From positions 1 through 11,972 of IMG/VR virus record IMGVR_UViG_2713896773_000004: a DNA stretch of 11,972 nt. One strand, written 5' to 3'. Source of the stretch: a virus (Duplodnaviria; Heunggongvirae; Uroviricota; Caudoviricetes). A program made the translations under genes and the position numbers. Below are positions 1-11,972 of the stretch, one piece after another. Position 1 is the first letter of the stretch. Each line of letters starts with the position of its first letter. Under the pieces are notes generated by a model. The model ran no database searches and had not been told where the DNA came from. It saw only the letters and a list, made by a program, of their open reading frames with translations.

Positions 1-29
1 TTTGAATAACTGAATAAGGTAATAAAACA

Positions 30-494
30 ATGACTCAACATATTGGCGTGAAGCTCATCAATGCTTACCCGATGACCCGTCTGGCATATAACGACTTTCG
101 TGGTTGGGAGTTACCAAGTGACGAAAACGGAAGTGATGAAGGTTATCTCGTCGAGTATCTGGATGGCGGAAAGCCAAACACCGATCGCTTCAACGGGTAT
201 GTGAGCTGGAGTCCGAAAGATGTGTTCGACAAAGCCTACCGACCAGTGGCGGGGCTTAGCTTCGGACTGGCTGTCGAAGCCCTGAAATCAGGCAAGCGTG
301 TCACCCGCGCAGGCTGGAACGGCAAGGGCCTGTGGCTTGAGCTGGTCCAGCAGTCGCCATCTGTGGACCTGCCGTACATTCGTTTAATTTATCCTGTGCC
401 GGGCAATGGTGCTATGCCATACCCAAATGGCGCTCGCGTGCCTTGGGCACCAAGCCAAACCGACGTCTTGGCTGATGACTGGCAAATTCTCTAA
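30..494 (+). CDS. Two-domain phage accessory protein; C-terminal DUF2829-like (Tad2-like) domain, N-terminal uncharacterised domain
   Basis: 154-aa ORF with ATG at 30 downstream of AAGG. C-terminal half has the motif series FGLAVEALKSGKRVTRAGWNGKG ... VPWAPSQTDVLADDWQIL, which I recognise from memory as the DUF2829 pattern (FGEAL.ALK.GK.V.R.GWNGK ... PW..SQ.D.LA.DW). N-terminal half (GYLVEYLDG ... YVSWSPKDVFDKAY) looks like a separate domain. No search was run. Confidence 0.55.
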   Translation: MTQHIGVKLINAYPMTRLAYNDFRGWELPSDENGSDEGYLVEYLDGGKPNTDRFNGYVSWSPKDVFDKAYRPVAGLSFGLAVEALKSGKRVTRAGWNGKGLWLELVQQSPSVDLPYIRLIYPVPGNGAMPYPNGARVPWAPSQTDVLADDWQIL

Positions 495-517
495 ACCAGT
501 TGCTTGGGGGGTGGTCT

Positions 518-727
518 ATGCGAGATGACGATTTTCACCATGTGGGCGATGGCCGCGGTAAGCGCCGAGTGTTCGTTAACGGCAACGAGGTCAAGCGCTG
601 CGTATGGGCGGATGTTAAGCGAGGAATAGCATGCTTCTACCCATACCCCATTCGGGTCCATAAGCGAAAGCGCGATGAAGTCTATACCCGCAAACTGCGC
701 GGCGTAATAACCGTCGAATTTATCTAA
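518..727 (+). CDS. Small basic hypothetical phage protein (about 69 aa)
   Basis: ORF in the track as 500..727 (TTG start). I prefer the in-frame ATG at 518, which follows a G-rich Shine-Dalgarno-like run GGGGGGTGG (505-513). Lys/Arg-rich (KRKRDEVYTRKLRG). No family recognised. Followed directly by a terminator. Confidence 0.45.
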   Translation: MRDDDFHHVGDGRGKRRVFVNGNEVKRCVWADVKRGIACFYPYPIRVHKRKRDEVYTRKLRGVITVEFI

Positions 728-728
728 C

Positions 729-753
729 AGGCTGCCTTCGGGTGGCCTTTTTT
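729..753 (+). terminator. Rho-independent terminator (UUCG tetraloop hairpin plus T6)
   Basis: AGGCUGCC-UUCG-GGUGGCCU forms an 8-bp stem with two G-U wobbles, followed by TTTTTT, immediately after the stop at 725-727. Confidence 0.6.
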
Positions 754-834
754 ATGCCTGCCGCTGAGCGGATGCGACGCGGTGACCGGGTCGGATGACC
801 TATTACCAATGGCCGGAAGGCTGGAGCAAAAACA

Positions 835-1587
835 ATGAAACTGAAACTTGATGCTAACGGAAATGTGGTCGTTGAAAACGGTATGCCTGTGTACATCCAT
901 GATGATGGCAAAGAAATCCCGTTCGACGCAGCCGCAGCGATGACCAAAATCACCTCCCTGAATGGTGAAGCTAAAACTCACCGTGAAGCGAAGGAGGCGG
1001 CGGAAGCCAGTCTCGCGAAATTCTCTGGCATCACCGATCCGACCAAGGCGCTCGAAGCCCTGGAGATGATGACCAAAATCGACCAGAAAAAACTGATCGA
1101 CGCTGGCGCTGTTGACCAGGTTAAGGCTGAGATTACCAAGGTATTCCAGCAGCAGCTGGATGAAGCGAACGGCAAGACCAAACAGCTCGAAAGCCAGCTC
1201 TACGACGAGATGATCGGCGGGCGCTTCGGTGGCTCCAAATTCATTTCAGAGAAGATGGCGATCCCGGCTGAGTTCGTGCGTTCCCACTTCGGTCAGAACT
1301 TCAAAATCGAAGACGGCAAAGTCGTGGCGTACGACGGGCAGGGCAACAAGGTGTTCTCTCGCACCAAGCCAGGCGAGTTAGCCAGCTTTGATGAGGCCCT
1401 GGAGTCTCTGGTCGAGTCGCATCCGCAGAAAGATTACATCCTCAAAGCGTCCGGTAACAGCGGCGGCGGTTCTCACCAGTCGCAGCACCAGGCCGGGCAA
1501 AAAACCATGAAACGCGATGCGTTTGATTCCCTGGATAACGCTGGCAAGCAAGCAGCGCTGAAAGACGGCGTCAGCATCGTCGATTAA
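835..1587 (+). CDS. Putative capsid scaffolding protein
   Basis: 250-aa ORF with AGGCTGGAG upstream. Charged, Ala/Lys/Glu-rich, predicted helical/coiled-coil composition, Gly/Ser/Gln-rich linker near the C-terminus. Sits immediately upstream of the major capsid gene with a 17-nt gap, the usual scaffold position. Confidence 0.55.
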   Translation: MKLKLDANGNVVVENGMPVYIHDDGKEIPFDAAAAMTKITSLNGEAKTHREAKEAAEASLAKFSGITDPTKALEALEMMTKIDQKKLIDAGAVDQVKAEITKVFQQQLDEANGKTKQLESQLYDEMIGGRFGGSKFISEKMAIPAEFVRSHFGQNFKIEDGKVVAYDGQGNKVFSRTKPGELASFDEALESLVESHPQKDYILKASGNSGGGSHQSQHQAGQKTMKRDAFDSLDNAGKQAALKDGVSIVD

Positions 1588-1604
1588 ATCGAAAGGAGCC
1601 ATAA

Positions 1605-2744
1605 ATGGCAGGCAATACCCTTACTGGTCTGATCCCGACCATCTATACCGCGCTGTACGTAGTGTCCCGCGAGCAAACTGGTTTTATTCCTGCGGTGGCG
1701 CGTGACGCGAAAGCGGATGCTGCTGCAAAAGACCAGACCGTACGTGCGCCAGTCGCACCTGCAGCCACCACTGAAGATATTGTCCCTGGACCTTCAGCGC
1801 CTAATTCTGGCGACCAGACCATCGGTGGTGTGGATGTCAAAATCACCAAATCCAAAATGGCCCCGGTGAAATGGAATGGTGAAGAGCAATTGGCTCTGGG
1901 CCCGGCTGGTACCTACAACACCATCCTGGCTGACCAGTTCAAGCAGGCTTTCCGTGCGCTGGCGAACGAAGTGGATGCGGATCTCGCTGCGCTGTACCTC
2001 AACTCCTCCCGCGCTGTTGGCGCGCCAAAGAATACCCCGTTCAGCATCAAAGACGATCTGACTGATGCTGCGTTGGCGCGTCAAATCCTGACCGATAACG
2101 GTGCGCCGACTACTGATTTGCGTATGGTGCTGGGTGGCGAAGCGATGGCATCCATCCGTGGTAAACAGGCTGTACTCTTCAAAGCGAACGAAGCGGGAAC
2201 CGACCAACTGCTGCGTGAAGGTGTTATCGGTCGCATCATGGGCTTCAACCTCCACGAATCCTTCAGCATCAAGCGTACCGCGAAAAGCGCTGCTGCTGGC
2301 TATAAGGTCAATGGCGCGAAGAAAGAGGGCGATATCATCATCGCTATCTCTGCTGGCACCGGCGGTATTGCTGCAGGTACTGCGGTGAAGTTCGCCGGTG
2401 ATGACAATCAGTATCTGGTCGTTGCGGCTACGTCTTCCACTATCACTATTAGCGCGCCGGGCCTCCGTCAGGATCTGGCAGACCAGGCTGATGTCACTGT
2501 GTTGAGCGAATTTGTACCGAACATGGCGTTTGACCGCGGGGCATTCCTGCTGGCCAGCCGTACCCCGGCGATGCCTGAAGGTGGCGATACTGCTGATGAC
2601 GTCATGAATGTGACCGACCCGGTATCTGGCATCACCTTCCAGGTGGCGCTGTACCGCCAGTACCGTCAGGTGCGTTATGAAGTGGGCCTGGCATGGGGTG
2701 TGGCTGCTGTGGCGCCACGTCATTCCGCCATCATCATGGGTTAA
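1605..2744 (+). CDS. Major capsid (coat) protein, P22 coat-like by motif resemblance
   Basis: 379-aa ORF with strong RBS AAGGAG about 8 nt upstream. Position after the scaffold gene and before connector genes. Segments GDIIIAISAGTGGIAAGTAVKFAGDDNQYLVV and the C-terminal GLAWGVAAVAPRHSAI resemble motifs I recall from P22 gp5-type coat proteins. Followed by a hairpin terminator/attenuator, typical of highly expressed capsid genes. Confidence 0.65.
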   Translation: MAGNTLTGLIPTIYTALYVVSREQTGFIPAVARDAKADAAAKDQTVRAPVAPAATTEDIVPGPSAPNSGDQTIGGVDVKITKSKMAPVKWNGEEQLALGPAGTYNTILADQFKQAFRALANEVDADLAALYLNSSRAVGAPKNTPFSIKDDLTDAALARQILTDNGAPTTDLRMVLGGEAMASIRGKQAVLFKANEAGTDQLLREGVIGRIMGFNLHESFSIKRTAKSAAAGYKVNGAKKEGDIIIAISAGTGGIAAGTAVKFAGDDNQYLVVAATSSTITISAPGLRQDLADQADVTVLSEFVPNMAFDRGAFLLASRTPAMPEGGDTADDVMNVTDPVSGITFQVALYRQYRQVRYEVGLAWGVAAVAPRHSAIIMG

Positions 2745-2748
2745 CCCA

Positions 2749-2770
2749 GGGGGCTTCGGCCCCTTTGTTT
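2749..2770 (+). terminator. Rho-independent terminator/attenuator after the capsid gene
   Basis: GGGGC-UUCG-GCCCC hairpin (2750-2763) followed by TTTGTTTT. Located between the capsid stop (2744) and the next RBS (AGGAGG, 2773-2778). Confidence 0.55.
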
Positions 2771-2782
2771 TCAGGAGGCCCA

Positions 2783-2983
2783 ATGGCCGGATTAACCAAA
2801 GAGCAGAGCGCGCAGCGTGAGGCTGAAAAGCTTGCCGCGCAGAACGGCGCTGAACAAACAGGTATTGAGCTGGTGGCTATGATGCGAGATACCCCGGAGT
2901 TCCCCGGCGGTCCGCTGAGCGCTGAGGTTCACCCTGACGAAGTCGATAACTGGCTGGCGCTGGACTGGCGACTGGAGGAGTAA
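2783..2983 (+). CDS. Small hypothetical head-module protein (66 aa)
   Basis: ORF track gives 2693..2983, but that start overlaps the capsid gene and its terminator. The in-frame ATG at 2783 has a consensus AGGAGG RBS 5 nt upstream. Acidic protein, no family recognised. Confidence 0.55.
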   Translation: MAGLTKEQSAQREAEKLAAQNGAEQTGIELVAMMRDTPEFPGGPLSAEVHPDEVDNWLALDWRLEE

Positions 2984-2985
2984 CT

Positions 2986-3297
2986 GTGAGCGATAAAGAT
3001 ATTGAGCAGGAAATTCAGGCCAAAGGCTTGAACGCGCCGCGCGTTACGCTGGGCGAGTTGAAGGCGAATATTAAGCATGCCGAGATCGTGAAGCACGTAT
3101 CCGTCACCGGGCAGGTGCTTCGCTGGGCGGTCATCACCACTCAAAACGGATTCGCAGTAACAGGGAATCCGTCGTGCTCAGTTTCCTCCGCTAACGACAA
3201 CGCTGAAATTGGCGAGAAAATTGCTATTGAGAACGCCGAAAGCGAGTTGTGGGCGTTGATGGGATATGCGTTAAAGCAGAAGCTTTTCGAAGCCTGA
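2986..3297 (+). CDS. Gp49-like small phage protein (PF13876-like pattern), function unknown
   Basis: 103-aa ORF with GTG start at 2986 preceded by GGAGGAG. Pattern TLGELKANI ... VTGQVLRWAVITTQNGFAVTGNPSCSVSSANDNAEIGEKIAIENAESELWALMGYALK matches my memory of the gp49/gp66-type small phage protein family. Not verified by search. Confidence 0.45.
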   Translation: MSDKDIEQEIQAKGLNAPRVTLGELKANIKHAEIVKHVSVTGQVLRWAVITTQNGFAVTGNPSCSVSSANDNAEIGEKIAIENAESELWALMGYALKQKLFEA

Positions 3298-3310
3298 GAG
3301 GAGCTCTGAG

Positions 3311-3793
3311 ATGATTAATGCCGATCCCCATTCGTCTGACTTCAACAGCTATGCCAGCGTTGGTGATCTGCGCGCGTTCGCTGCGGGGCGCGGATACACC
3401 ATCCCTGCTGAAGATGGCGAATGCAGCCAGATGCTGATGCAGGCAATGGACTTTCTGGAAGGGAAGGCCTGGCGCGGTCAGCGTTCCAGCGCATCACAGC
3501 CTCTATCCTGGCCGCGTTCCGGCGTGCGCTTCGATGGTGTTGACCTGTCGAATGATGCGATTCCACAGCGCCTGATTGATGCTCAATGTCGCCTGGCCAT
3601 CGAATCGCAGGAGATTGACCTCACCCCGTCGGTCGCTGGCGGTGGGGCGGTTACGATGGAGCGCGTCGAGGGTGCGGTAACAGTCCAGTATGAGCCGGGA
3701 ACGAATAAAGCTTCTCCGTCATTCCCATGGTTCTATTCCGCACTGCGCGGGCTTGTAGTGGGCGGCAACCAGGTCCGGGTCGAAAGGGGGTAG
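3311..3793 (+). CDS. Putative head-tail connector / adaptor protein
   Basis: 160-aa ORF with GAGGAG RBS. First of four tightly packed small genes between the capsid and major tail genes, the canonical siphovirus connector/neck block. Assignment is by position and size, not by recognised homology. Confidence 0.4.
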   Translation: MINADPHSSDFNSYASVGDLRAFAAGRGYTIPAEDGECSQMLMQAMDFLEGKAWRGQRSSASQPLSWPRSGVRFDGVDLSNDAIPQRLIDAQCRLAIESQEIDLTPSVAGGGAVTMERVEGAVTVQYEPGTNKASPSFPWFYSALRGLVVGGNQVRVERG

Positions 3794-3794
3794 C

Positions 3795-4148
3795 ATGGCA
3801 ATCGACTATCGCCGCATGCGCGCGACCGCGACCCGACTGCTGACCGAGAACGGGAAGGCATATCAGCTTACCCGCGGCGGCGGCACCATCCGTGACCAGT
3901 TCGGCAAAGAGGTCACCACCCCGGCCATTACCGCGACCGTAACCGGTGTTATCACCGAATACTCCTCCCGCGAAATCGACGGTTCCCTGATCGCCACCGG
4001 CGACAAGAAGCTGGCGGCCACTTTCGAGACGGAAGTGCGCATCGATGACCGCATCGAAATCGACAGCAAAAAGTGGCGCGTGGTACAGCCGAATCCGGTT
4101 AAGCCTGCCGATGTGCTGATCTCCTACAACATCCAGCTGAGGGCGTAA
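3795..4148 (+). CDS. Putative head-tail joining / head closure protein
   Basis: 117-aa ORF starting 2 nt after the previous stop (translational coupling), GGGGG upstream. Position and size fit a head-tail joining protein. Confidence 0.4.
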   Translation: MAIDYRRMRATATRLLTENGKAYQLTRGGGTIRDQFGKEVTTPAITATVTGVITEYSSREIDGSLIATGDKKLAATFETEVRIDDRIEIDSKKWRVVQPNPVKPADVLISYNIQLRA

Positions 4149-4150
4149 CT

Positions 4151-4750
4151 ATGGTGGGGTCTGTTAATCAGCCGTTCCTGGCTGCCATTCAGCTGTTCGT
4201 GGATGGCTCGAAGCAGGAGATGGACGAGGTGGTGCGCCGGACGGGTATTAAAATCCTCGCTCAACTGGTTGAGATGTCCCCGGTGGGCCAACCGGATATC
4301 TGGCAGGTCAACCAGACCGCGACGGCGTACAACACTGCGGTGCGGGAGCATAACGCGACCCTGCGTGATGACCCGGCTAATCTGACCAAATCAGGACGAC
4401 TTAAGCGCGGCCTGCGCGTCAACGACTCGATGGACATCAAAAAGCCTGAGGGCTATGTCGGCGGGCGGTTTAAAAACAACTGGTATGTGGGCTTTGACAG
4501 CCAGCCAAGCCAATCCAACGACACCCCCGACGCTTCCGGCCAGGGTTCCAACTCCCGCGGTCTGGCAGTGCTCGAGGTGTTCCGGGTAGGGCAGGTCAGC
4601 TCGATTTTCTTCACCAATAATCTGCCATATGCGGCAGCACTGGAGAACGGGCATTCCGGCCAGGCACCCGGCGGCATGGTGGGCATCACTGCGCTGGATG
4701 CCGCGCAGTTGTTCCGTGAGGCAATGAGCGAGGTGCGCAATGGCCAGTGA
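4151..4750 (+). CDS. Putative tail completion / neck protein (HK97 gp10-like position)
   Basis: 199-aa ORF starting 3 nt after the previous stop. Third gene of the connector block. Family assignment by synteny only. Confidence 0.4.
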   Translation: MVGSVNQPFLAAIQLFVDGSKQEMDEVVRRTGIKILAQLVEMSPVGQPDIWQVNQTATAYNTAVREHNATLRDDPANLTKSGRLKRGLRVNDSMDIKKPEGYVGGRFKNNWYVGFDSQPSQSNDTPDASGQGSNSRGLAVLEVFRVGQVSSIFFTNNLPYAAALENGHSGQAPGGMVGITALDAAQLFREAMSEVRNGQ

Positions 4751-5189
4751 CCAGTCAATGCGAATTGCTGAACTACTGGAGAGCCGCATTGCGGTTATCT
4801 GCTTATCGCTTGGGCTGCCCGTAGCCTGGCCGAACATACCGTTTACTCCCCCGGATAGCTCACCATACGGGCGTGTTTATGTTCTGCCGGCACAGACGGT
4901 GGGGCAAGACCTGGAAGGTCAATTGCGAACCTATCAGGGCATCCTGCAGCTCAACATCATTGCGCCAGCAGGCAGCGGCGTGACGCAGGCCAGAGGGCTG
5001 GCTAAATCTGTCGCTGATGCATTTCCTGAAGGGCTTGCGCTGGTGGATGGTGACCTGACTGTTTATATCAATGGGCCGCCGCAGGTGAGACAACCCATCC
5101 AGGACCGGCCAACCTCGGCGTCCAACGGGTCCAGTGGCTCCATAACCTACACCATTCCCGTCAGCATGCAGTACCGCGCTGACTACTGA
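4740..5189 (+). CDS. Putative tail terminator protein (gpU-like position)
   Basis: 149-aa ORF whose ATG (4740) overlaps the previous gene by 11 nt (ATGGCCAGTGA). Last small gene before the major tail gene, the position of the tail terminator in lambda-like clusters. Followed by a terminator. Confidence 0.45.
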   Translation: MASDQSMRIAELLESRIAVICLSLGLPVAWPNIPFTPPDSSPYGRVYVLPAQTVGQDLEGQLRTYQGILQLNIIAPAGSGVTQARGLAKSVADAFPEGLALVDGDLTVYINGPPQVRQPIQDRPTSASNGSSGSITYTIPVSMQYRADY

Positions 5190-5212
5190 CCCGCCAGATG
5201 GCGGGTTTTTTA
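5190..5212 (+). terminator. Rho-independent terminator
   Basis: CCCGCC-AGAU-GGCGGG perfect 6-bp hairpin (5190-5205) followed by TTTTTTATT, immediately after the stop at 5187-5189. Confidence 0.65.
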
Positions 5213-5235
5213 TTACCTAAATTCAGGAGAGTGCT

Positions 5236-6168
5236 ATGGCATTCGCAATCCCTAACGGCTCGCGTGTTAACGTGGCCAAGGCCTATCAGGCTCCCATCAC
5301 CTTTACCGCTGCCTCTAACGCTACTGAATGCGAACTGACTGTTGCATCTGCCGCTGGCATCCTGGCGGGCGACGTAGTGCAGGTGAGCTCCGGCTGGCTA
5401 AAACTCGATAATATGGTGCTGCGCGTTAAATCCGTAGCCGGTACCAAAATCGTGCTGGATTCGTTCGATACCTCTGACACCACCAAATTCCCGGCAGGCA
5501 CTGGCGCGGGCACGCTGCGTAAAATCGACACGTGGATCACGATGCCGCAGGTGATGACCCTCTCCACAGAGGGTGGTGACCAGCAGACCATCAGCGTGCA
5601 GTTCCTTGAAGACGATAAGGCCCGTACCATCCCGACCTTCAAAAACGCCGTGGTGCAGGTCTACACCTTCGCGCACGATCCGCTGCTGGCAATTTACAAG
5701 CGTCTGAGTGAACTTGACGAATCCAGCGACACCACTGCTGTGTGGTTCCATAACCCGCGCGGCAAAGCGGACCGTTATTACTCTGCCAAAGTGTCTTTCC
5801 AGAAGGTGCCTAAGACCGAAATCAACGCCGTGGAAAGCAACGAAGCGCGCATGAACTTCGAATCGGATATGCAGATTTACCCGATCGCCGATTCATCCGT
5901 TACGCCGCTGGCGTTCCTGACTGATCTGCCATCAACCAAAGCAGTTAGTGTTGGAGATGCGCTCGATTTAGCCGTCGTTATGCAAGGCGGCTCAGCCCCT
6001 TACACCTACGTGTGGAAGAAAGGAAGCTCCGCAATTCCGGGCAAAACCGCCTCGACGTTCAACATTTCGTCTGTCTCATCCGGTGATGCTGGCGTTTATA
6101 CCTGCGAAGTCACTGACGCCGCAGGCAAGACCCTAACGTCGGCGGCATGCACCGTTACTGTCAGCTAA
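5236..6168 (+). CDS. Major tail (tube) protein with C-terminal Ig-like domain
   Basis: 310-aa ORF with RBS CAGGAGAG. Sits between the tail terminator and the G/GT chaperone, as lambda V does. C-terminal roughly 80 aa (AVSVGDALDLAVVMQGGSAPYTYVWKKGSS ... SGDAGVYTCEVTDAAGKTLTSAACTVTVS) has the Y-x-C and W hallmarks of an Ig-like domain of the kind appended to many phage tail tube and capsid proteins. Confidence 0.7.
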   Translation: MAFAIPNGSRVNVAKAYQAPITFTAASNATECELTVASAAGILAGDVVQVSSGWLKLDNMVLRVKSVAGTKIVLDSFDTSDTTKFPAGTGAGTLRKIDTWITMPQVMTLSTEGGDQQTISVQFLEDDKARTIPTFKNAVVQVYTFAHDPLLAIYKRLSELDESSDTTAVWFHNPRGKADRYYSAKVSFQKVPKTEINAVESNEARMNFESDMQIYPIADSSVTPLAFLTDLPSTKAVSVGDALDLAVVMQGGSAPYTYVWKKGSSAIPGKTASTFNISSVSSGDAGVYTCEVTDAAGKTLTSAACTVTVS

Positions 6169-6175
6169 CCAATCA

Positions 6176-6200
6176 GGCCCGGTTCGCCGGGCTTTATTTC
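6176..6200 (+). terminator. Rho-independent terminator after the major tail gene
   Basis: GCCCGG-UUCG-CCGGGC hairpin (6177-6192) followed by TTTATTTC. Confidence 0.6.
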
Positions 6201-6384
6201 GCAATGAGTACCGCTGGCGAATTTTCTGTATTCGCATTACCCATCTTTTCAAACTGCGCCTTCACACGCGCTCTCTAACCAAGAACCTTTCAGAAAGCGT
6301 TCCTGAGAACTGCCGTTAGTGCCGGTGGGCCTCTTGGGGCGGCTTTTCTGTGTGAACAGGTTCGCTTTTTAAAAGGTACACACC

Positions 6385-6915
6385 ATGAATCACCCAACCG
6401 TCTCAGTGAATGGGGTCTCCGTCCGCGTTGATGACGAAGGCCGGTACAGTCTTAACGATCTTCATGCGGCAGCGGTAGCTAACGGAGAGGCTACTGAGTC
6501 ACAAAGGCCCAGCGTCTTCCTGCGTAGCGCGCAGATCAAACGCTTCGTTAAAGCGCTAAAATCCAAAGCACTAAAAAGTGCTTCGGAACAAAATCAACCA
6601 CTTAAGGTTATAAAAGGCGGTGATCAAAGTGGTGCATGGGGCATTGAACTTCTGGCAATCCGCTATGCCGCCTGGATAAAGCCAGAGTTTGAGATTGAAG
6701 TGTACGAAGTATTTAGAACAGTGGTGCGTCTTGGTATCAGTGCCATGTCCCGCCTGAACAAAATCGACCACATCATCAACACTGAAACCAAGGCAATTAG
6801 CCAGTGTGCCAGCCAAATGGCCAAGTGGGGTGTTGGTGGTCGCAAGCAGCTATTACATGCAGCCCGGGATCGCGTCGCCGACGAAGTCCAGATGTATCTG
6901 CCCGGCATTAACTAA
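6385..6915 (+). CDS. KilA-N domain protein (moron)
   Basis: 176-aa ORF with AAAAGG upstream. N-terminus VSVNGVSVRVDDEGRYSLNDLHAAA ... SVFLRSAQIKRFVKAL ... GAWGIELLAIRYAAWIKPEFEIEVYEVF matches the KilA-N pattern I recall (V..G..IRV...GRYSLNDLH.A ... F.R ... W..P.F). C-terminal roughly 70 aa unrecognised. Lies in a 786-bp gap between the major tail gene and chaperone G, with terminators on both sides. Confidence 0.6.
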   Translation: MNHPTVSVNGVSVRVDDEGRYSLNDLHAAAVANGEATESQRPSVFLRSAQIKRFVKALKSKALKSASEQNQPLKVIKGGDQSGAWGIELLAIRYAAWIKPEFEIEVYEVFRTVVRLGISAMSRLNKIDHIINTETKAISQCASQMAKWGVGGRKQLLHAARDRVADEVQMYLPGIN

Positions 6916-6916
6916 T

Positions 6917-6941
6917 ACCCGCTACGGCGGGTTTCGTTTTT
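6917..6941 (+). terminator. Rho-independent terminator after the KilA-N gene
   Basis: ACCCGC-UACG-GCGGGU hairpin (6917-6932) followed by TTCGTTTTTCT. Stop codon at 6913-6915. Confidence 0.6.
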
Positions 6942-6954
6942 CTAAGGAACCGAA

Positions 6955-7293
6955 ATGACCAAATTCTCCCTGATCCCGAACCCGACCTTCTCCGTTACCG
7001 CCAGCATCCCGCGCGCTGGTGCTGAAGACGGCAAGCTGACCTTTACCTTCCGCCACAAGACACTGGAAGAGCTGCGCTCTATGGATGAAAAGCTGCAAAA
7101 GTCGGCTGAAGGTAAAAAGGCTGCTATCGAGCCGCAGGCCGACTACCTCATGGAAATTGTCGAGGGGTGGGCACTACCTGACGAGTTCACCCGCGACAAC
7201 GTTATTGTCCTTCTTCAGAACTACCCGCGCGCGTTCGACAGCATCGGTCTGGCCTACACCAAAGAGCTGATGGGTATCCGCGAAAAAAACTAA
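6955..7293 (+). CDS. Tail assembly chaperone (lambda gpG-like)
   Basis: 112-aa ORF with AAGGAA RBS, immediately upstream of the tape measure gene. Ends with a slippery heptamer A_AAA_AAC immediately 5' of its stop codon, and the -1 frame continues open to the tape measure start. Confidence 0.65.
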   Translation: MTKFSLIPNPTFSVTASIPRAGAEDGKLTFTFRHKTLEELRSMDEKLQKSAEGKKAAIEPQADYLMEIVEGWALPDEFTRDNVIVLLQNYPRAFDSIGLAYTKELMGIREKN

Positions 7294-7598
7294 GGCAGGT
7301 CGCCGCAGCGTTGTACACGCCGGGACCGACTCTCGCGGAGTTAGCCGCTTTTGGTTTGACGCCTGAGGACGTGGAGGAAGAGGTGGGTATCCTGCCCTCT
7401 GTGTGGAAGTCTTTCACCATCTTCTCTGCCCTGGCAACCCAGTGGCGCGTCGGCGCGAGCGGGGCGACCGGCCTTGATTACAACGTTCTCCCCTGGATGT
7501 TCGAGTTACACGGGGTTGAGGATGCGGCGGCCTGCATGGCTGACCTTCAAATTATGGAAAGCGAGGCTCTCAAGGTAATGCATAAGGAGACGAAATAA
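6955..7598 (+). CDS. Tail assembly chaperone frameshift fusion (gpGT-like), made by -1 programmed ribosomal frameshift at 7284-7290
   Basis: 0-frame codons GAA AAA AAC TAA place the heptamer A_AAA_AAC at 7284-7290. After a -1 slip, reading continues CTA AGG CAG ... (LRQVAAALYTPGPTLAEL...) to the TAA at 7596-7598. This is the same frame as track ORF 7311..7598, which has no credible independent start (TTG, no RBS). Predicted fusion is about 214 aa. Confidence 0.6.
7284..7290 (+). other. -1 programmed ribosomal frameshift slippery heptamer A_AAA_AAC
   Basis: AAAAAAC in X_XXY_YYZ register relative to the G reading frame, directly upstream of the G stop codon. Confidence 0.6.
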
Positions 7599-10500
7599 TG
7601 ACAGACCAGATCGCCTCGATTACTTTGCGGGCCGATGTTTCTGACCTGAAAACAGCCAGCAACGAACTGGATAAACTCGGCCAGGCGGCGGCCGGTGCTG
7701 TAGATAAAGCAGATGATCTGAATAGCGTGTTTCGCGCTGGCGCTGAATCTGCGAAGCAAGGCAGCGAAGGACTCAAGGAGCAGCAGAACGCGCTCAAAGG
7801 GCTGCTGGAGAATATCGACCCGGTTACCAAGGCCTTAAACCGCCTGGATGAGCAGCAAGAATCGCTGCGGAAATTCCAGGCCAAAGGTTTCCTGGATACC
7901 GATACCTTTCAGGCATACAACAAAATCCTGGATGACACCCGCCTCAAGCTGACCGACACCGGAGAAGCCGCGGCGCGCGCTCAGGCTGAATTAGCCGCTA
8001 CCCAGGCGGCAGAAAAGCAGTCCGCAGCGTTAAAGAACCTTCTTGGATCCATCGACCCGACTATCCGCGCGTTCAATTCGTTGGATGAACAGCACGCACA
8101 GCTGGTGGAACATTTCGAAGCTGGGCGCATTAACGGTGCTCAGTTCGAGCACTTCAACACAATCCTTAACCAGACGCGTGAGCGCCTCTCTGGTGTCGCT
8201 GACGTACTACCAGAGGCGCTATCCCGGCAGGAAGCTGCTGCCCGGCGCGCTGGAATCTCCGTTGGTCAGTACAGCGCAGCAATGCGCACGCTTCCGGCGC
8301 AATTCACCGATATCGCCACGCAGCTGGCTGGCGGTCAGTCGCCGTTCCTGATTCTGCTGCAACAGGGCGGGCAGATTAAAGACCAGTTCGGCTCGGTTCA
8401 GGGGGCGCTGTCCGGCGTCGGCGAATACATCCGCAGCATGGCTGGGATGATTAACCCTACCACAATCGCACTTGGTGGGCTGATTGGCACGATCGGCCTG
8501 CTGGCTGCCGCAGCGTATAACTCCTCGGAGCAATTTGAGCAGGTGGCACGCTCTGTCATCATGATGGGTGGGGCTGGCTTCTCCTCAATGCAGCAGCTCA
8601 ACCAGGCCGCTGAGGAAGTGGCTGGCAAGACGAATACATCGATTAGCTCCACCGTCGATACGCTGGTTACGTTGAACGATACTGGCAAATATACCGCAAG
8701 CCAGATGAAGCAGGTCGCAACGACCATCACCCTCATGGGTAAGGCCGGAAATGATACCAAAGCGGCAATAAGCGACTTCGGAAAGATTGTCAGCGATCCG
8801 GTTAAAGGGCTTGCCAGCCTCAATGAACAATATGGTTTCGTTGATGAAGCCATGATCAAGCACATTATCCAGCTACGTAAGCAGAAGGGTGAGCAGGCGG
8901 CTGTTACCGAAGCTATTGAGCTGTTTGCAGGCGTCATGGCAAAGCGCGCAGAGGAGACCAACAAAGCGACCGATAATATCGGTCAAACGTGGGAAAACCT
9001 TAAAAAGAGCGCTTCTGACACCTTTGGCGATATAGGTATTACCGTGCGCGCATGGGGAAACCAGATCATTGATATTTTCGAACTGGTTAAATCCTCGATC
9101 AAAGACTTGTTCCTCAATATCACCTCTCTGGACGCCAAGTTCACCAGCACCATCGCTGGCTGGGCAGACAAAATCCCGGGTGGCGGTGCGCTGGCTAATT
9201 TCCTCGGCATGGACGTTGAGGCAATGAAAAAGGCTGGAGCGGAGGCGGACAAAGAGATTGAGGCGAACAAAAAACGCTATAACGAGCTTTGGAAGCGCGT
9301 CACTGCGCCTAACGCACAGGCAAACTATGAGGCTGAAGCGCGAGGGTCTAACGTAAAAGGTGATGGAGGAACAAGTCGAGAATCAAGAGACGCAGTCTCG
9401 AAGCTTGCACAAGACTCAGACAAAAAGACCAAAGAGGCAAAAGCCACGCTGGATGCTGGCGATCGCACCCTGGAGAACTACCGCGCCCAGGCCAGAACGT
9501 TAACTGAAACGCTCGAGACCCTCCGACAAACAGGCGAAACCCACGCTAAAAACACCGAGTTCAGTAAACAGCAATCTCGATTTGCTGAATTGGATGAGGC
9601 AGCCAAAACCCGCGCGTTGACTGCTCAGGAAAAATCTTTACTGTCGAGCCGTGAGGCGATTCTGAACGCCGCCAAGGTGGTTGATCAGAAGAACAAGGAA
9701 GTAGAGGCGCAGCAGAAGATTAACGGCCTGGCGCAGCAGGCGAATAAATACGTCACGCAGATGTCGGAAAAAACCGATGCATTGCGTGATAGTGTAGGCC
9801 TCAGCAGTCGGCAAACGCAGCGCATGATGGAAGAGGCACAGCTTCGCCAGGGCTGGCTCAACGGTGGCGGTAAGCTTGATGATGCTGGCTATGAGAAAGA
9901 ACTGGCAGCCCTCAGAAATTATTACGCTGAAGAGGATAAGCTGCGCGGCGATTGGAAATCAGGTGCTATCAGCGGCTGGAATGAGTATCTGGACGCTGCC
10001 ACCAATACCTACGATGCCGTGAAGAATGTTGCCAGCTCCACGCTAACAGGCCTGAGCGACATGCTGACCGAGCTCATGACGACCGGCAAAGCATCGGTCA
10101 AAGAGTTCGGCAAATCCATGCTCAAGATGATCCTGGATGTGACGAACCGCCTCATGGTGGCCTACGCGGTGCAAGCTGCTATGGGATGGATCAGTGGGAG
10201 CGCGGGAGGTGGCGCTACACCCGGCGGTGCTTATGCCAATGCGGCCGCTGGTGTAACGTTCAATGCTAAAGGCGGCGTATACGAATCACCCGGCCTCAGT
10301 AAATATGTGAATGGCGTCTACGATTCTCCTCAATATTTCACATTCCAGGGCGCGTCGAAGTTTGCCAAAGGCGGGGTATTCGCTGAGGCAGGGGCTGAGG
10401 CGATCATGCCGCTGACGCGGGATTCTGCTGGTCGGCTTGGTGTCAGGGCGCAAGGCGGGGGCGGTGCGCAGCCTCAGGTCAATATTGATATCTACGTTGA

Positions 10501-10651
10501 TAACAAGGGCAACACATCATCAAATACGTCCGGAGACGGCAGTGCTGCGGCGCGTGCCTTAGGCAAGGAAATTGAAGCAAAGGTTACGGAGATCCTCGTG
10601 AGGGCCGCTCGGAGTGATGGTTTCCTGGGCAAAACGTTCCAACCCAAATAA
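7598..10651 (+). CDS. H: Tail tape measure protein (lambda gpH homologue)
   Basis: 1017-aa ORF whose ATG overlaps the upstream stop (TAATG), RBS AAGGAGA. Segment [53 protein letters not shown] is near-identical to the lambda gpH segment I recall ([49 protein letters not shown]). Also has hydrophobic Gly-rich segments and a Gly/Ala-rich C-terminus typical of tape measure proteins. Confidence 0.9.
   Translation: [1017 protein letters not shown]
7790..8188 (+). repeat. Intragenic tandem duplication in the tape measure N-terminal region (two diverged copies of about 54 aa, period 79 aa)
   Basis: Residues 65-118 ([54 protein letters not shown]) and 144-197 ([54 protein letters not shown]) align without gaps at about 44% identity. 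Nucleotide copies are diverged, sharing short strings such as ATCGACCC. Confidence 0.7.
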
Positions 10652-10693
10652 GAAACTGCTGTGATTCTGAGATGGGAATATCATCTGCACCTG

Positions 10694-10722
10694 GTTACAG
10701 CGACACATCCCTTGGTTATCAT
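10694..10722 (+). promoter_or_regulatory. Candidate sigma70 promoter for the first island gene
   Basis: GTTACA (10694-10699), 17-bp spacer, TATCAT (10717-10722). Predicted start about 10729, upstream of RBS AAGGGG (10742-10747). Pattern match only. Confidence 0.3.
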
Positions 10723-10753
10723 GAGCTAAACCATGCTAATCAAGGGGATGATA

Positions 10754-11128
10754 ATGAAGGCGCTCAAAATTGGCCTTGCAGGGATTGTTGTTATTTACTT
10801 GCTCATCAATGCCAGTAAATCACAAGAGATAAAAAGCGAAGATATACCTGCGTTTGCTAAAAGTGAGTCAAATGTATGGATAGCTAATACACTGGGCCAG
10901 CCGGGCGCAGACGTCATCAAAAGCTCTACCTACTACCTTAAGCGTGAGATTCCAGAAGAGGATATTGTTTATGGCTATCTTTGTGGAACCATAACAACTG
11001 GCGAAAGATTCTTTACTGAGGTCTCGATCAATAAGCGCAAGCACACGTCTGGCATTTTCAAAAATATGATATTTGATAAACGCAATGCAAAGACGTTTAA
11101 TCAGATCTGGAACACTGAGTGTAAGTAA
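10754..11128 (+). CDS. Hypothetical secreted or membrane-anchored protein with N-terminal signal peptide (cargo island gene A)
   Basis: Track ORF 10733..11128. I prefer ATG 10754 (or 10748), 6 nt after AAGGGG. N-terminus MKALKIGLAGIVVIYLLINA-SKSQ has a basic n-region, hydrophobic core and Ala at the putative cleavage site, with no lipobox Cys. Mature part has two Cys. Local GC is about 40%. No family recognised. Confidence 0.55.
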   Translation: MKALKIGLAGIVVIYLLINASKSQEIKSEDIPAFAKSESNVWIANTLGQPGADVIKSSTYYLKREIPEEDIVYGYLCGTITTGERFFTEVSINKRKHTSGIFKNMIFDKRNAKTFNQIWNTECK

Positions 11129-11149
11129 CCATCAAGATCACCCAACACA

Positions 11150-11175
11150 GCCTCGCATACGCGGGGCTTTTTTAT
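11150..11175 (+). terminator. Rho-independent terminator after island gene A
   Basis: GCCUCGC-AUAC-GCGGGGC hairpin (one G-U wobble) at 11150-11167, followed by TTTTTTAT. Confidence 0.6.
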
Positions 11176-11203
11176 ATCTGTAGCCGAGAGGCAGGAGAAC
11201 GTT

Positions 11204-11461
11204 ATGGAAATGACTGTAGGATTCCCTGAAATGGGTTCGCGATTTGAATCTGTAAGCTTCGATCCAGATTTAGAAATTAAAATGATAAAGACTGTCAGAA
11301 CCAAAATTACAGTTTGCAAGCTTGAGCAAATCAATGCGCCTCATGAACTGGTGTTTATCTATCAGGAGGATTTCAATCCAGGCAGCTCTTTTGCCGAAGT
11401 CGAAGCACGCGCCAAAGAATATGCCAGTAAGGCAATTGCCGGATTGAAAACCCCGGCTTAA
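11204..11461 (+). CDS. Hypothetical small acidic protein (cargo island gene B, 85 aa)
   Basis: ORF with AGGAGA RBS 6 nt upstream of ATG 11204. AT-rich codon usage unlike the structural genes. Its stop codon lies in the loop of a hairpin that can terminate the convergent minus-strand gene. No family recognised. Confidence 0.5.
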   Translation: MEMTVGFPEMGSRFESVSFDPDLEIKMIKTVRTKITVCKLEQINAPHELVFIYQEDFNPGSSFAEVEARAKEYASKAIAGLKTPA

Positions 11462-11467
11462 CCGGGG
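11447..11467 (-). terminator. Candidate rho-independent terminator for minus-strand gene C
   Basis: Plus-strand CCCCGG-CTTAA-CCGGGG (11451-11467). On the minus strand the hairpin is followed by UUUU (complement of AAAA 11447-11450), 8 nt downstream of the gene C stop. The U-tract is short, so strength is uncertain. Confidence 0.4.
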
Positions 11468-11474
11468 CAAAGCA

Positions 11475-11705
11475 TTATTTGATGCGATGGTAGATGTTAT
11501 CAGCCCTGGCGTACAATTTGGATACCGCCTCGGCACGACCTTGCTCTTGCATCGTCATTTTTGATGTATCTCCACCGTAGGCCTTCGTCATATACTCAGT
11601 AACGCGCTTGCGAAAAGCTCCAGCATCACCTGATTCGACAGTGGCAACAGCTAATAAAAACGCTAAGGCTTCATCCTGCTGGTCTTCTTTGTTAAAGCTC
11701 ATCAT
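11475..11705 (-). CDS. Hypothetical small protein encoded antisense to the late operon (cargo island gene C, 76 aa)
   Basis: Minus-strand ORF starting ATGATG (complement of 11700-11705) with AGGAG 3 nt upstream (complement of CTCCT 11709-11713). Protein MMSFNKEDQQDEALAFLLAVATVESGDAG..., no family recognised. It is the only credible minus-strand gene in the window. Confidence 0.55.
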   Translation of the reverse strand: MMSFNKEDQQDEALAFLLAVATVESGDAGAFRKRVTEYMTKAYGGDTSKMTMQEQGRAEAVSKLYARADNIYHRIK

Positions 11706-11753
11706 AAACTCCTGTTATACCGAGGCCATCAGCCGCACCGTCGGCAATTAATG

Positions 11754-11774
11754 CGCCAGTGCCCACCACTGGCG
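11754..11774. repeat. Perfect 8-bp inverted repeat with 5-bp spacer upstream of gene C
   Basis: CGCCAGTG-CCCAC-CACTGGCG, located about 50-70 bp upstream of the gene C start codon on the minus strand. Candidate operator or RNA hairpin. Confidence 0.4.
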
Positions 11775-11834
11775 GGCTGAATCCACAACATAACCAGGTA
11801 TTTTGATTTGTAACATCCTGATATTCAGACAGTA

Positions 11835-11857
11835 GCCACCTTCGGGTGGCTTTTTTT
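11835..11857 (+). terminator. Rho-independent terminator (perfect UUCG tetraloop hairpin plus T7) immediately upstream of gene M
   Basis: GCCACC-UUCG-GGUGGC (11835-11850) followed by TTTTTTT (11851-11857). The RBS GGAG and ATG of the next gene follow within 12 nt. Confidence 0.7.
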
Positions 11858-11868
11858 ATGGAGCAAAT

Positions 11869-11972
11869 ATGGCAGTTGAAACATACAGCTGGCGCTCGCA
11901 GCTCGGTGCTGGGGCGATTGAATATAGTCAAACGGTGCGCGCTGCGCAGTTCGGTGATGGCTATGAGCAGGT
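11869..11972 (+). CDS. M: Minor tail protein M (lambda gpM-like), 5' partial, continues beyond the window
   Basis: ATG at 11869 with GGAG 5 nt upstream. Translation MAVETYSWRSQLGAGAIEYSQTVRAAQFGDGYEQ matches the N-terminal pattern of lambda M as I recall it (MKTFRWKVKPGMDVASVPSVRKVRFGDGYSQ), including the FGDGY motif. Truncated by the window end. Confidence 0.7.
   Translation, partial: MAVETYSWRSQLGAGAIEYSQTVRAAQFGDGYEQ

Follow-up and report, generated by a model that had tools for sequence, protein, structure and literature searches.

A conserved small moron gene encoding a putative exported protein between the tape-measure and gpM-like genes of a lambdoid prophage

A stretch of DNA from a tailed phage (IMG/VR record IMGVR_UViG_2713896773_000004, positions 1 to 11,972; hereafter the window, 11,972 bases) corresponds to the late region, with head and tail genes, of a lambdoid siphophage or prophage, and its closest isolated phage is Escherichia phage HK639, with 86% identity across 78% of bases 1-10650. 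Between its tape-measure gene and a gene for a gpM-like minor tail protein lies an island of 1.2 kb holding three small genes, A, B and C. We report here on gene A (10754..11128, + strand, stop codon counted), which is a real, selected, autonomous and accessory gene. It specifies a precursor of 124 amino acids (aa), a small protein predicted to be exported, and to judge from its N-terminal sequence the product almost certainly reaches the cell envelope. What it does there can be proposed only tentatively, and interference with the entry of a superinfecting phage is the role that we put forward.

An autonomous and rare accessory cassette

The maximal open reading frame (ORF) at this site spans 10733-11128 and would give 131 aa. 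Within it the ATG at 10754 is the better-supported start, because a Shine-Dalgarno sequence, AAGGGG (10742..10747, + strand), stands 6 nucleotides (nt) ahead of it and is invariant in 12 of 12 aligned, divergent loci even though their more distant upstream sequences are not related from one context to the next, and because the upstream ATG at 10733 is not conserved, having been lost in loci L007 and L016 (CAC-GAT). The start codon chosen in the original prediction, an annotation made from the letters of the window alone, is thereby upheld. Nine protein alleles of gene A are 76-100% identical. Pairwise comparison of six alleles gave ratios of nonsynonymous to synonymous substitution (dN/dS) of 0.04-0.10 at synonymous divergences (dS) from 0.6 to above 2, and such low ratios despite high synonymous divergence indicate that gene A is no chance ORF.

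In the Juhala/Hendrix definition, a moron is extra DNA of deviant composition that has its own promoter and terminator and is expressed from the repressed prophage (PMC3594210). Gene A has the position, the base composition and the terminator of such an element. The GC content is 0.41-0.43 over 10700-11300, compared with 0.55-0.585 in the tape-measure gene, and the drop, from about 0.56 to about 0.41, coincides exactly with the island. A consensus scan found a sigma-70-like promoter candidate at 10694..10722 (+ strand), consisting of GTTACA, a spacer of 17 nt and TATCAT. Across the 12 aligned loci, homology starts about 65 nt before the ATG and the sequence beyond is unrelated; the candidate -10 hexamer reads only TATCAT, TATAAT, TATTAT or TAATAT, so that A2 and T6 are kept (TAnnnT), and GTTACA is kept in nine of them, being lost in L015, which has an insertion sequence (IS) upstream, and in L007 and L016. 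Gene A may be transcribed from the prophage via this candidate promoter. Downstream, the scan placed an intrinsic terminator at 11149..11174 (+ strand), AGCCTCGC-ATAC-GCGGGGCT followed by T6, with a GC-rich stem of 8 bp and the hairpin itself at 11149-11168. Read from the sequence, a promoter-like element, one gene and a terminator make up the classic arrangement of a moron, as described for HK97 (PMC3594210).

Gene A is accessory and rare. In HK97, H is followed directly by M, with nothing in the slot; E. coli prophages with 99.7% identity to the window from 11139 onward carry a 74-aa gene and a zinc-ribbon gene where the window has gene A; and the HK639 slot holds a lipoprotein gene and a YafO toxin-antitoxin pair. 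A word-indexed search of 5.8 billion proteins returned eight relatives, all 76-89% identical. Phmmer, run exhaustively on 1.84 billion 50%-identity representatives, recovered nothing beyond the cluster of gene A itself and a signal-peptide fragment of 28 residues. Nine IMG/VR viral contigs carry gene A, as does one of 185,579 species-representative genomes, that of Enterobacter hormaechei. No match was found by tblastn in 50,697 phage records, and in 5,426 complete E. coli genomes megablast matched the flanks only, with gene A present in none. The exact allele of the window is recurrent, appearing in 144 blocks of an assembly collection, under the name 'MULTISPECIES Enterobacteriaceae' and in E. 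coli draft-genome accessions. Wherever a locus was read, gene A occupied the same position, after the tape-measure gene. The original prediction had treated the gene as a moron, and this agrees with its absence from the slot in close relatives, its low GC content, its conserved promoter-like element and its own terminator.

The 90%-identity protein cluster into which the gene A product of the window falls is chimeric: the representative, like the majority of the members, is 85 aa long, which is the length of the gene B product; a 241-aa member may be a fused call bridging the products of genes A and B. The absence of the exact window allele from the homolog search is probably due to this chimeric cluster. 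The slot between the tape-measure gene and gpM is itself a cargo hotspot whose contents vary among relatives (L002-L016 and HK639, which is L033). It was seen to hold a 59-aa gene with Fic, SocA/Panacea with a 150-aa gene, a 190-aa gene with a YafO toxin, a 74-aa gene with a zinc-ribbon protein, a lipoprotein and, in L015, an IS (DDE_Tnp_1) directly upstream of gene A.

The cassette occurs with and without a second gene. In eight loci, mostly from Enterobacter, gene A is followed at a distance of 26-27 nt by a gene for a 139-aa lipoprotein; no terminator separates the two, and a shared one comes after the pair. The product of this second gene begins VKPIIIAAVLMLSGC and has a classical lipobox, LSGC. 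This gene is cleanly absent from the window and from 15 other loci (16 of 24 in all), where the same terminator stands directly after gene A. A third form is found in HK639, in which a 29%-identical lipoprotein gene alone is followed by that terminator. Across all cassette forms the loop of the terminator varies, whereas its stem AGCCTCGC/GCGGGGCT does not change. Since gene A and the lipoprotein gene are each found apart, they are separable modules, and their independent occurrence weakens the idea of an obligate pair. The two lipoprotein-less alleles, those of the window and of the L015 type, differ by a dS of 0.6 with a dN/dS of 0.095, which argues that gene A functions without the lipoprotein.

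The lipoprotein family comprises 72 clusters in Enterobacter, Citrobacter, Klebsiella, Escherichia, Ewingella and Pantoea, and its link to DUF2846 is weak and sub-threshold (best expectation value, E = 0.0033, for four of 11 members). Its genes lie at 6402-6821 in L003, around 4001-4423 in L026, L029 and L032, and at 4182-4595 in L033. The members, of about 140 aa, recur as single-gene inserts in lambdoid tail operons; each insert has its own terminator, and its site is the one behind the tape-measure gene or another between gpK and gpI. The family is a candidate receptor-blocking lipoprotein. Literature searches on the lipoprotein family (DUF2846), on HK639 morons and on periplasmic exclusion morons turned up nothing about these genes. 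The original prediction had argued against a lipoprotein, and for gene A itself that stands, as the protein lacks a lipobox and is therefore not a lipoprotein of the Cor/Bor/Llp type; for the cassette it needs amending, since a lipoprotein gene with the LSGC lipobox belongs to its ancestral or alternative form in Enterobacter, though it is missing from the window.

Predicted export and fold of the gene A product

Residues 1-20 (MKALKIGLAGIVVIYLLINA; 10754..10813, + strand) form a predicted Sec signal peptide, with cleavage predicted before S21 on the basis of hydropathy and the -3/-1 rule. The N-terminus is laid out as MKALK, an uncharged core from I6 to I18, and N-A ahead of the serine at the predicted cut. 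A20 and S21-Q24 are invariant, position -1 is alanine and position -3 isoleucine or valine across every allele, and there are more positive charges ahead of the core than behind it. By a rule-of-thumb test, then, the protein has the positive n-region, the h-region of 10-15 residues and the small residues at -1 and -3 of a Sec (signal peptidase I) substrate. No RR (twin-arginine) motif, no lipobox cysteine and no Cys before residue 77 were found in it. The hydrophobic core of 13-16 residues has a length usual for signal peptides and would be a short one for an anchor in the membrane; by these rules of thumb, core length and charge distribution favour a cleaved signal over an uncleaved N-in/C-out anchor. 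In either case the domain that follows would face the periplasm.

The predicted mature part has 104 aa, a mass of 11.9 kDa and an isoelectric point (pI) of 8.5. It contains exactly two Cys, C77 (10982-10984) and C123 (11120-11122), which are invariant in nine of nine alleles and are likely to form a disulfide. A Sec-type N-terminus and a mature part of roughly 105 aa with two Cys had both been noted in the original prediction, and both hold on closer inspection, with the added observation that the -3 and -1 residues and the two Cys are conserved among alleles.

AlphaFold2 was run on an alignment of nine gene A alleles. The resulting model has a mean predicted local distance difference test score (pLDDT) of 82 and a predicted template modelling score (pTM) of 0.71, and four of the five models agree. 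Averaged over blocks of ten residues, pLDDT lies at 90-94 for residues 31-100 and at 75-85 in the C-terminal helix. Residues 7-21 form a separate signal helix, joined to the domain by a low-confidence linker. The mature domain (residues 21-124; 10814..11125, + strand) is modelled with a helix at 28-46, strands at 55-66, 71-80, 85-93 and 98-107, and a second helix at 109-123, and it contains both Cys77 and Cys123. It is thus predicted to be a compact cystatin-like fold, a long helix on a four-stranded antiparallel sheet with an additional C-terminal helix, and the model has the helix packed on an antiparallel sheet that marks the cystatin superfamily. A structure prediction followed by a Foldseek search had been proposed at the outset; the first yielded this compact model, but Foldseek against the Protein Data Bank (PDB) and BFVD gave nothing below E = 0.017, which is not a significant match.

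There was no Pfam family match to gene A at E up to 1, no match to tail or lysis PHROGs, nothing below E = 1.3 in a profile search of PDB sequences, and only a chance-level best match among PADLOC defence profiles (E = 0.019, 12.6 bits). A relationship to YebF was considered and rejected, the hhalign comparison of the gene A product with E. coli YebF having a probability of 0.1%. Homology to gp15 of HK97, or to YebO, was not found by PHROG or Pfam, and whole-database searches gave the gene A family only. Clear homology to a structural tail protein, which the original prediction had regarded as incompatible with an envelope role, was likewise not seen, and the tails of related phages do without gene A.

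Proposed function and alternative explanations

In the scheme that we propose, gene A is an autonomous accessory cassette of an HK639/HK97-like lambdoid prophage, set between the tape-measure and gpM-like genes, in which a promoter-like element and a strong ribosome-binding site precede a single gene and an intrinsic terminator closes the unit. The 20-residue N-terminal signal would insert the 124-aa product into the Sec pathway, with cleavage probably after Ala20; if uncleaved, the signal would anchor the protein N-in/C-out. The outcome would be a basic domain of 104 residues in the periplasm, its two invariant Cys probably joined in a DsbA-made disulfide. The product is likely to act by binding another protein, and the domain would serve as a stoichiometric binding or blocking protein in the lysogen envelope, neutralising something that crosses the periplasm. 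The first candidate for such a target would be the tail tip or the DNA-entry machinery of a superinfecting phage, with superinfection exclusion at the DNA-entry step as the result. That gene A encodes an exported moron protein blocking the entry apparatus of a superinfecting phage is a tentative reading, which we would give somewhat less than an even chance. The entry apparatus is suggested as the target because of the precedent of HK97 gp15, because the slot carries cargo of toxin-antitoxin or defence type, and because the characterised members of the fold are mostly stoichiometric binders. Superinfection exclusion or a virulence role, as suggested in the original prediction, is a reasonable possibility drawn from the location of the gene, from a fold common among binders and inhibitors, and from neighbours that carry toxin-antitoxin or envelope functions. 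A broader and more doubtful proposal is that gene A founds a new class of cystatin-fold prophage factors for envelope protection, soluble in the periplasm or tethered there, that would bind a protein on its way through and so stop either the DNA entry of superinfecting siphophages or an imported toxin. Gene A would then be one module of a shuffled two-gene cassette, with the DUF2846-like lipoprotein as the other, and the cassette would change places among the slots of lambdoid tail operons.

Several observations weigh against a role in blocking phage entry, or against steps on the way to it. The export signal was judged by rules of thumb. Only nine close sequences stand behind the structural model, and the inhibitory motifs of cystatins (QxVxG in the first hairpin, PW in the second) are absent from the allele alignment. 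Searches of Pfam, PHROGs, PADLOC and NCBIfam with gene A gave chance-level matches only, and sequence searches returned the gene A family alone, with no homolog of characterised function. Promoter-like sites are no more numerous in the region than in shuffled sequence. Finally, the toxin-antitoxin cargo of the slot speaks through guilt by association, which is weak evidence.

The architecture of the protein also recalls the colicin M immunity protein Cmi, and gene A could instead encode a periplasmic, possibly membrane-tethered, inhibitor of the immunity type that works as Cmi does. Its target would be not a phage but an enzyme toxin taken up by the cell, for instance a lipid II hydrolase like colicin M, a hydrolase of peptidoglycan or an effector of a type VI system. 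Pfam and InterPro place YebF together with Cmi, so the YebF comparison described above bears on this explanation; it gave a probability of 0.1%, and the lack of any Pfam family at E up to 1 points the same way. Moreover, no bacteriocin gene adjoins gene A in any of about 25 loci, the flanks in every locus read being tail genes, toxin-antitoxin pairs, the lipoprotein gene or an IS, with no colicin M-type toxin gene among them. We rate an immunity function as clearly less likely than a block on phage entry, though as a serious alternative. Much the same may be said, with slightly less confidence still, of a lysogenic-conversion or fitness factor that acts on the bacterial or eukaryotic host (a secreted YebF-like protein, a modulator of serum resistance or adhesion, or a modifier of envelope stress) and has no role against phages or toxins. 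An export signal and a small, basic, stable-looking product would suit such a factor, the exact allele recurs in many Enterobacteriaceae assemblies of clinical or surveillance type, and the lambda morons lom and bor act in this way (PMC3594210). Against it stand the lack of similarity to virulence families, a very narrow spread (the single genome among 185,579 species representatives and the zero of 5,426 complete E. coli genomes given above) and adjoining cargo that is of toxin-antitoxin or defence type and not of virulence type.

The two remaining explanations turn on the surroundings of the gene. The eight loci in which the lipoprotein gene follows gene A by 26-27 nt, with no terminator between them and a shared one after the pair, would be expected if gene A and the DUF2846-like lipoprotein worked only together, as an envelope unit of two proteins, and the window copy were a leftover of reduced or no function. 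Lipoprotein-less cassettes are the majority (16 of 24 loci), however; the promoter-like site, the Shine-Dalgarno sequence and also the terminator are retained in them, and their two alleles still give a dN/dS of 0.095 at a dS of 0.6. The lipoprotein family, with its 72 clusters, is also far wider than that of gene A and occurs alone between gpK and gpI or alone in the HK639 slot. A leftover half of such a unit is accordingly quite improbable in our estimation. Most improbable of all is a virion or lysis component, whether an accessory protein of the tail or the partner of the lipoprotein in a spanin pair, on the inner-membrane side, although gene A is co-oriented within the late tail operon, and a protein with a hydrophobic N-terminus followed in some relatives by a lipoprotein gene bears a superficial likeness to Rz/Rz1. 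A structural tail protein is rejected on distribution, as gene A is absent from close phages with the same tail genes, and it has no tail or lysis PHROG match. A spanin of the Rz/Rz1 kind is made unlikely by a periplasmic part that is globular alpha+beta in the model and not a coiled coil, by the 139-aa length of the lipoprotein, by the occurrence of the two genes apart, and by the location of gene A in the tail operon, outside any lysis cassette.

Neighbouring genes and comparison with known systems

The left neighbour of gene A encodes the tail tape-measure protein (7598..10651, + strand; 1017 aa; Pfam TMP_2 at 1e-52 and Tape_meas_lam_C at 4e-21; phrog_24). To its right, gene B (11204..11461, + strand; 85 aa) corresponds to the part of HK97 annotated for the gp22 'moron product', with 90.3% DNA identity to HK97 14452-15145, and gene C (11475..11705, - strand; 76 aa) to the part annotated for the gp23 'reverse moron product', with about 90% DNA identity to HK97. 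The gp22/gp23 region lies between I and J in HK97, and genes B and C lie here between H and M. In the HK97 record gp22 is 120 aa long and overlaps gp23, while the gene B ORF has 85 aa. No convincing family match was found for the products of genes B and C in Pfam, PHROGs, PADLOC or NCBIfam. The scan placed a terminator-like hairpin near gene C, at 11834-11851, and the end of the island is marked by the start of the gene for the gpM-like minor tail protein (11860..11972, + strand; Pfam Phage_min_tail at 1.4e-4 on the first 37 aa and phrog_14 at 1.3e-7).

Elsewhere in the window, the major capsid gene lies at 1605-2744 and the major tail gene, with an Ig-like C-terminus, at 5236-6168. A tail chaperone pair follows at 6955-7293 (Phage_TAC_4) and 7311-7598 (DUF1799), both on the + strand, and resembles the gpG/gpT pair; in lambda-like phages, gpG and gpT are usually joined via a programmed -1 frameshift. 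Upstream of the head genes, a 154-aa ORF (30-494, + strand) has a Tad2-like domain (Thoeris anti-defence 2; PF11195, E = 4.6e-20) over residues 77-154. Between the major tail gene and the tail chaperones sits a 176-aa ORF (6385-6915, + strand) with a KilA-N domain (E = 3.8e-15), the DNA of which is 83% identical to a region of Salmonella phage 29485. In relatives L009-L012 its position is either vacant or taken by other genes, and the ORF looks like another moron.

Among known systems, the most direct precedent for the function proposed for gene A is gp15 of HK97, the superinfection-exclusion activity of which was reportedly described by Cumby et al. in 2012. This tail-operon moron encodes an envelope protein that blocks DNA entry and so confers superinfection exclusion (PMC3594210). 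Like gene A, gp15 is encoded by a small gene with its own transcription signals beside the tape-measure gene of a lambdoid tail operon and has an envelope product (for gene A, the promoter is a candidate and the envelope location predicted), and a further link to HK97 is that genes B and C of the island match its gp22/gp23 moron region. The two proteins have no sequence relation: gp15 is a YebO-like inner-membrane protein, whereas gene A is predicted to have a core of signal-peptide length and a globular periplasmic domain of 104 residues. The gp15 gene also lies before the tape-measure gene, and gene A after it.

In architecture, gene A can be compared with Cmi, which has 117 aa, a transmembrane segment at residues 1-23, a long helix embraced by a sheet of four strands, and two Cys in an essential disulfide (PMC8469651). 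Cmi (PDB 2xgl) and YebF-like proteins share with gene A a length of about 120 aa, an N-terminal hydrophobic segment, a helix with a four-stranded antiparallel sheet and exactly two Cys. The likeness is one of architecture, as no YebF/Cmi profile relation was seen and no toxin gene is linked to gene A. For cystatins, latexin, SQAPI, fetuin-B and PepSY (YpmB) the match is at the level of the fold only, with 3-13% identity, and unlike true cystatins gene A is missing the N-terminal strand, has no QxVxG or PW loop and has no Pfam match. To our knowledge, the cystatin fold has not previously been described among exclusion proteins.

Other comparisons concern small envelope proteins of different build. 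T4 Spackle (Sp) is a small Sec-exported soluble periplasmic protein, all-helical and encoded by a virulent phage, that inhibits the incoming tail lysozyme and so excludes superinfecting phage by way of a tail-tip component. Its mechanism is the one proposed for gene A, with no sequence or fold relation seen between them. Cor of phi80 and N15, Llp of T5 and Bor of lambda are small envelope lipoproteins that alter susceptibility to phages, colicins or serum (PMC3594210, PMC9586334). They too are small envelope proteins encoded by phages or prophages in the tail or late region, as gene A is predicted to be; gene A differs from them in lacking a lipobox, the lipoprotein of its system being encoded by a gene of its own, separable from gene A and not present in the window.

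Prophage morons that specify small exported proteins are already well known as a kind, while the gene A family is uncharacterised and has no detectable relatives. If gene A has no role in blocking phage entry or a periplasmic toxin, it would be one more conserved orphan moron. If it does, it would add a structurally new and very small factor to the few envelope-level prophage defences, and the slot between the tape-measure gene and gpM in lambdoid prophages would be a cargo hotspot worth mining. With its clean boundaries, three natural cassette forms and strong selection, the gene A cassette offers a convenient model for the assembly and trimming of morons.
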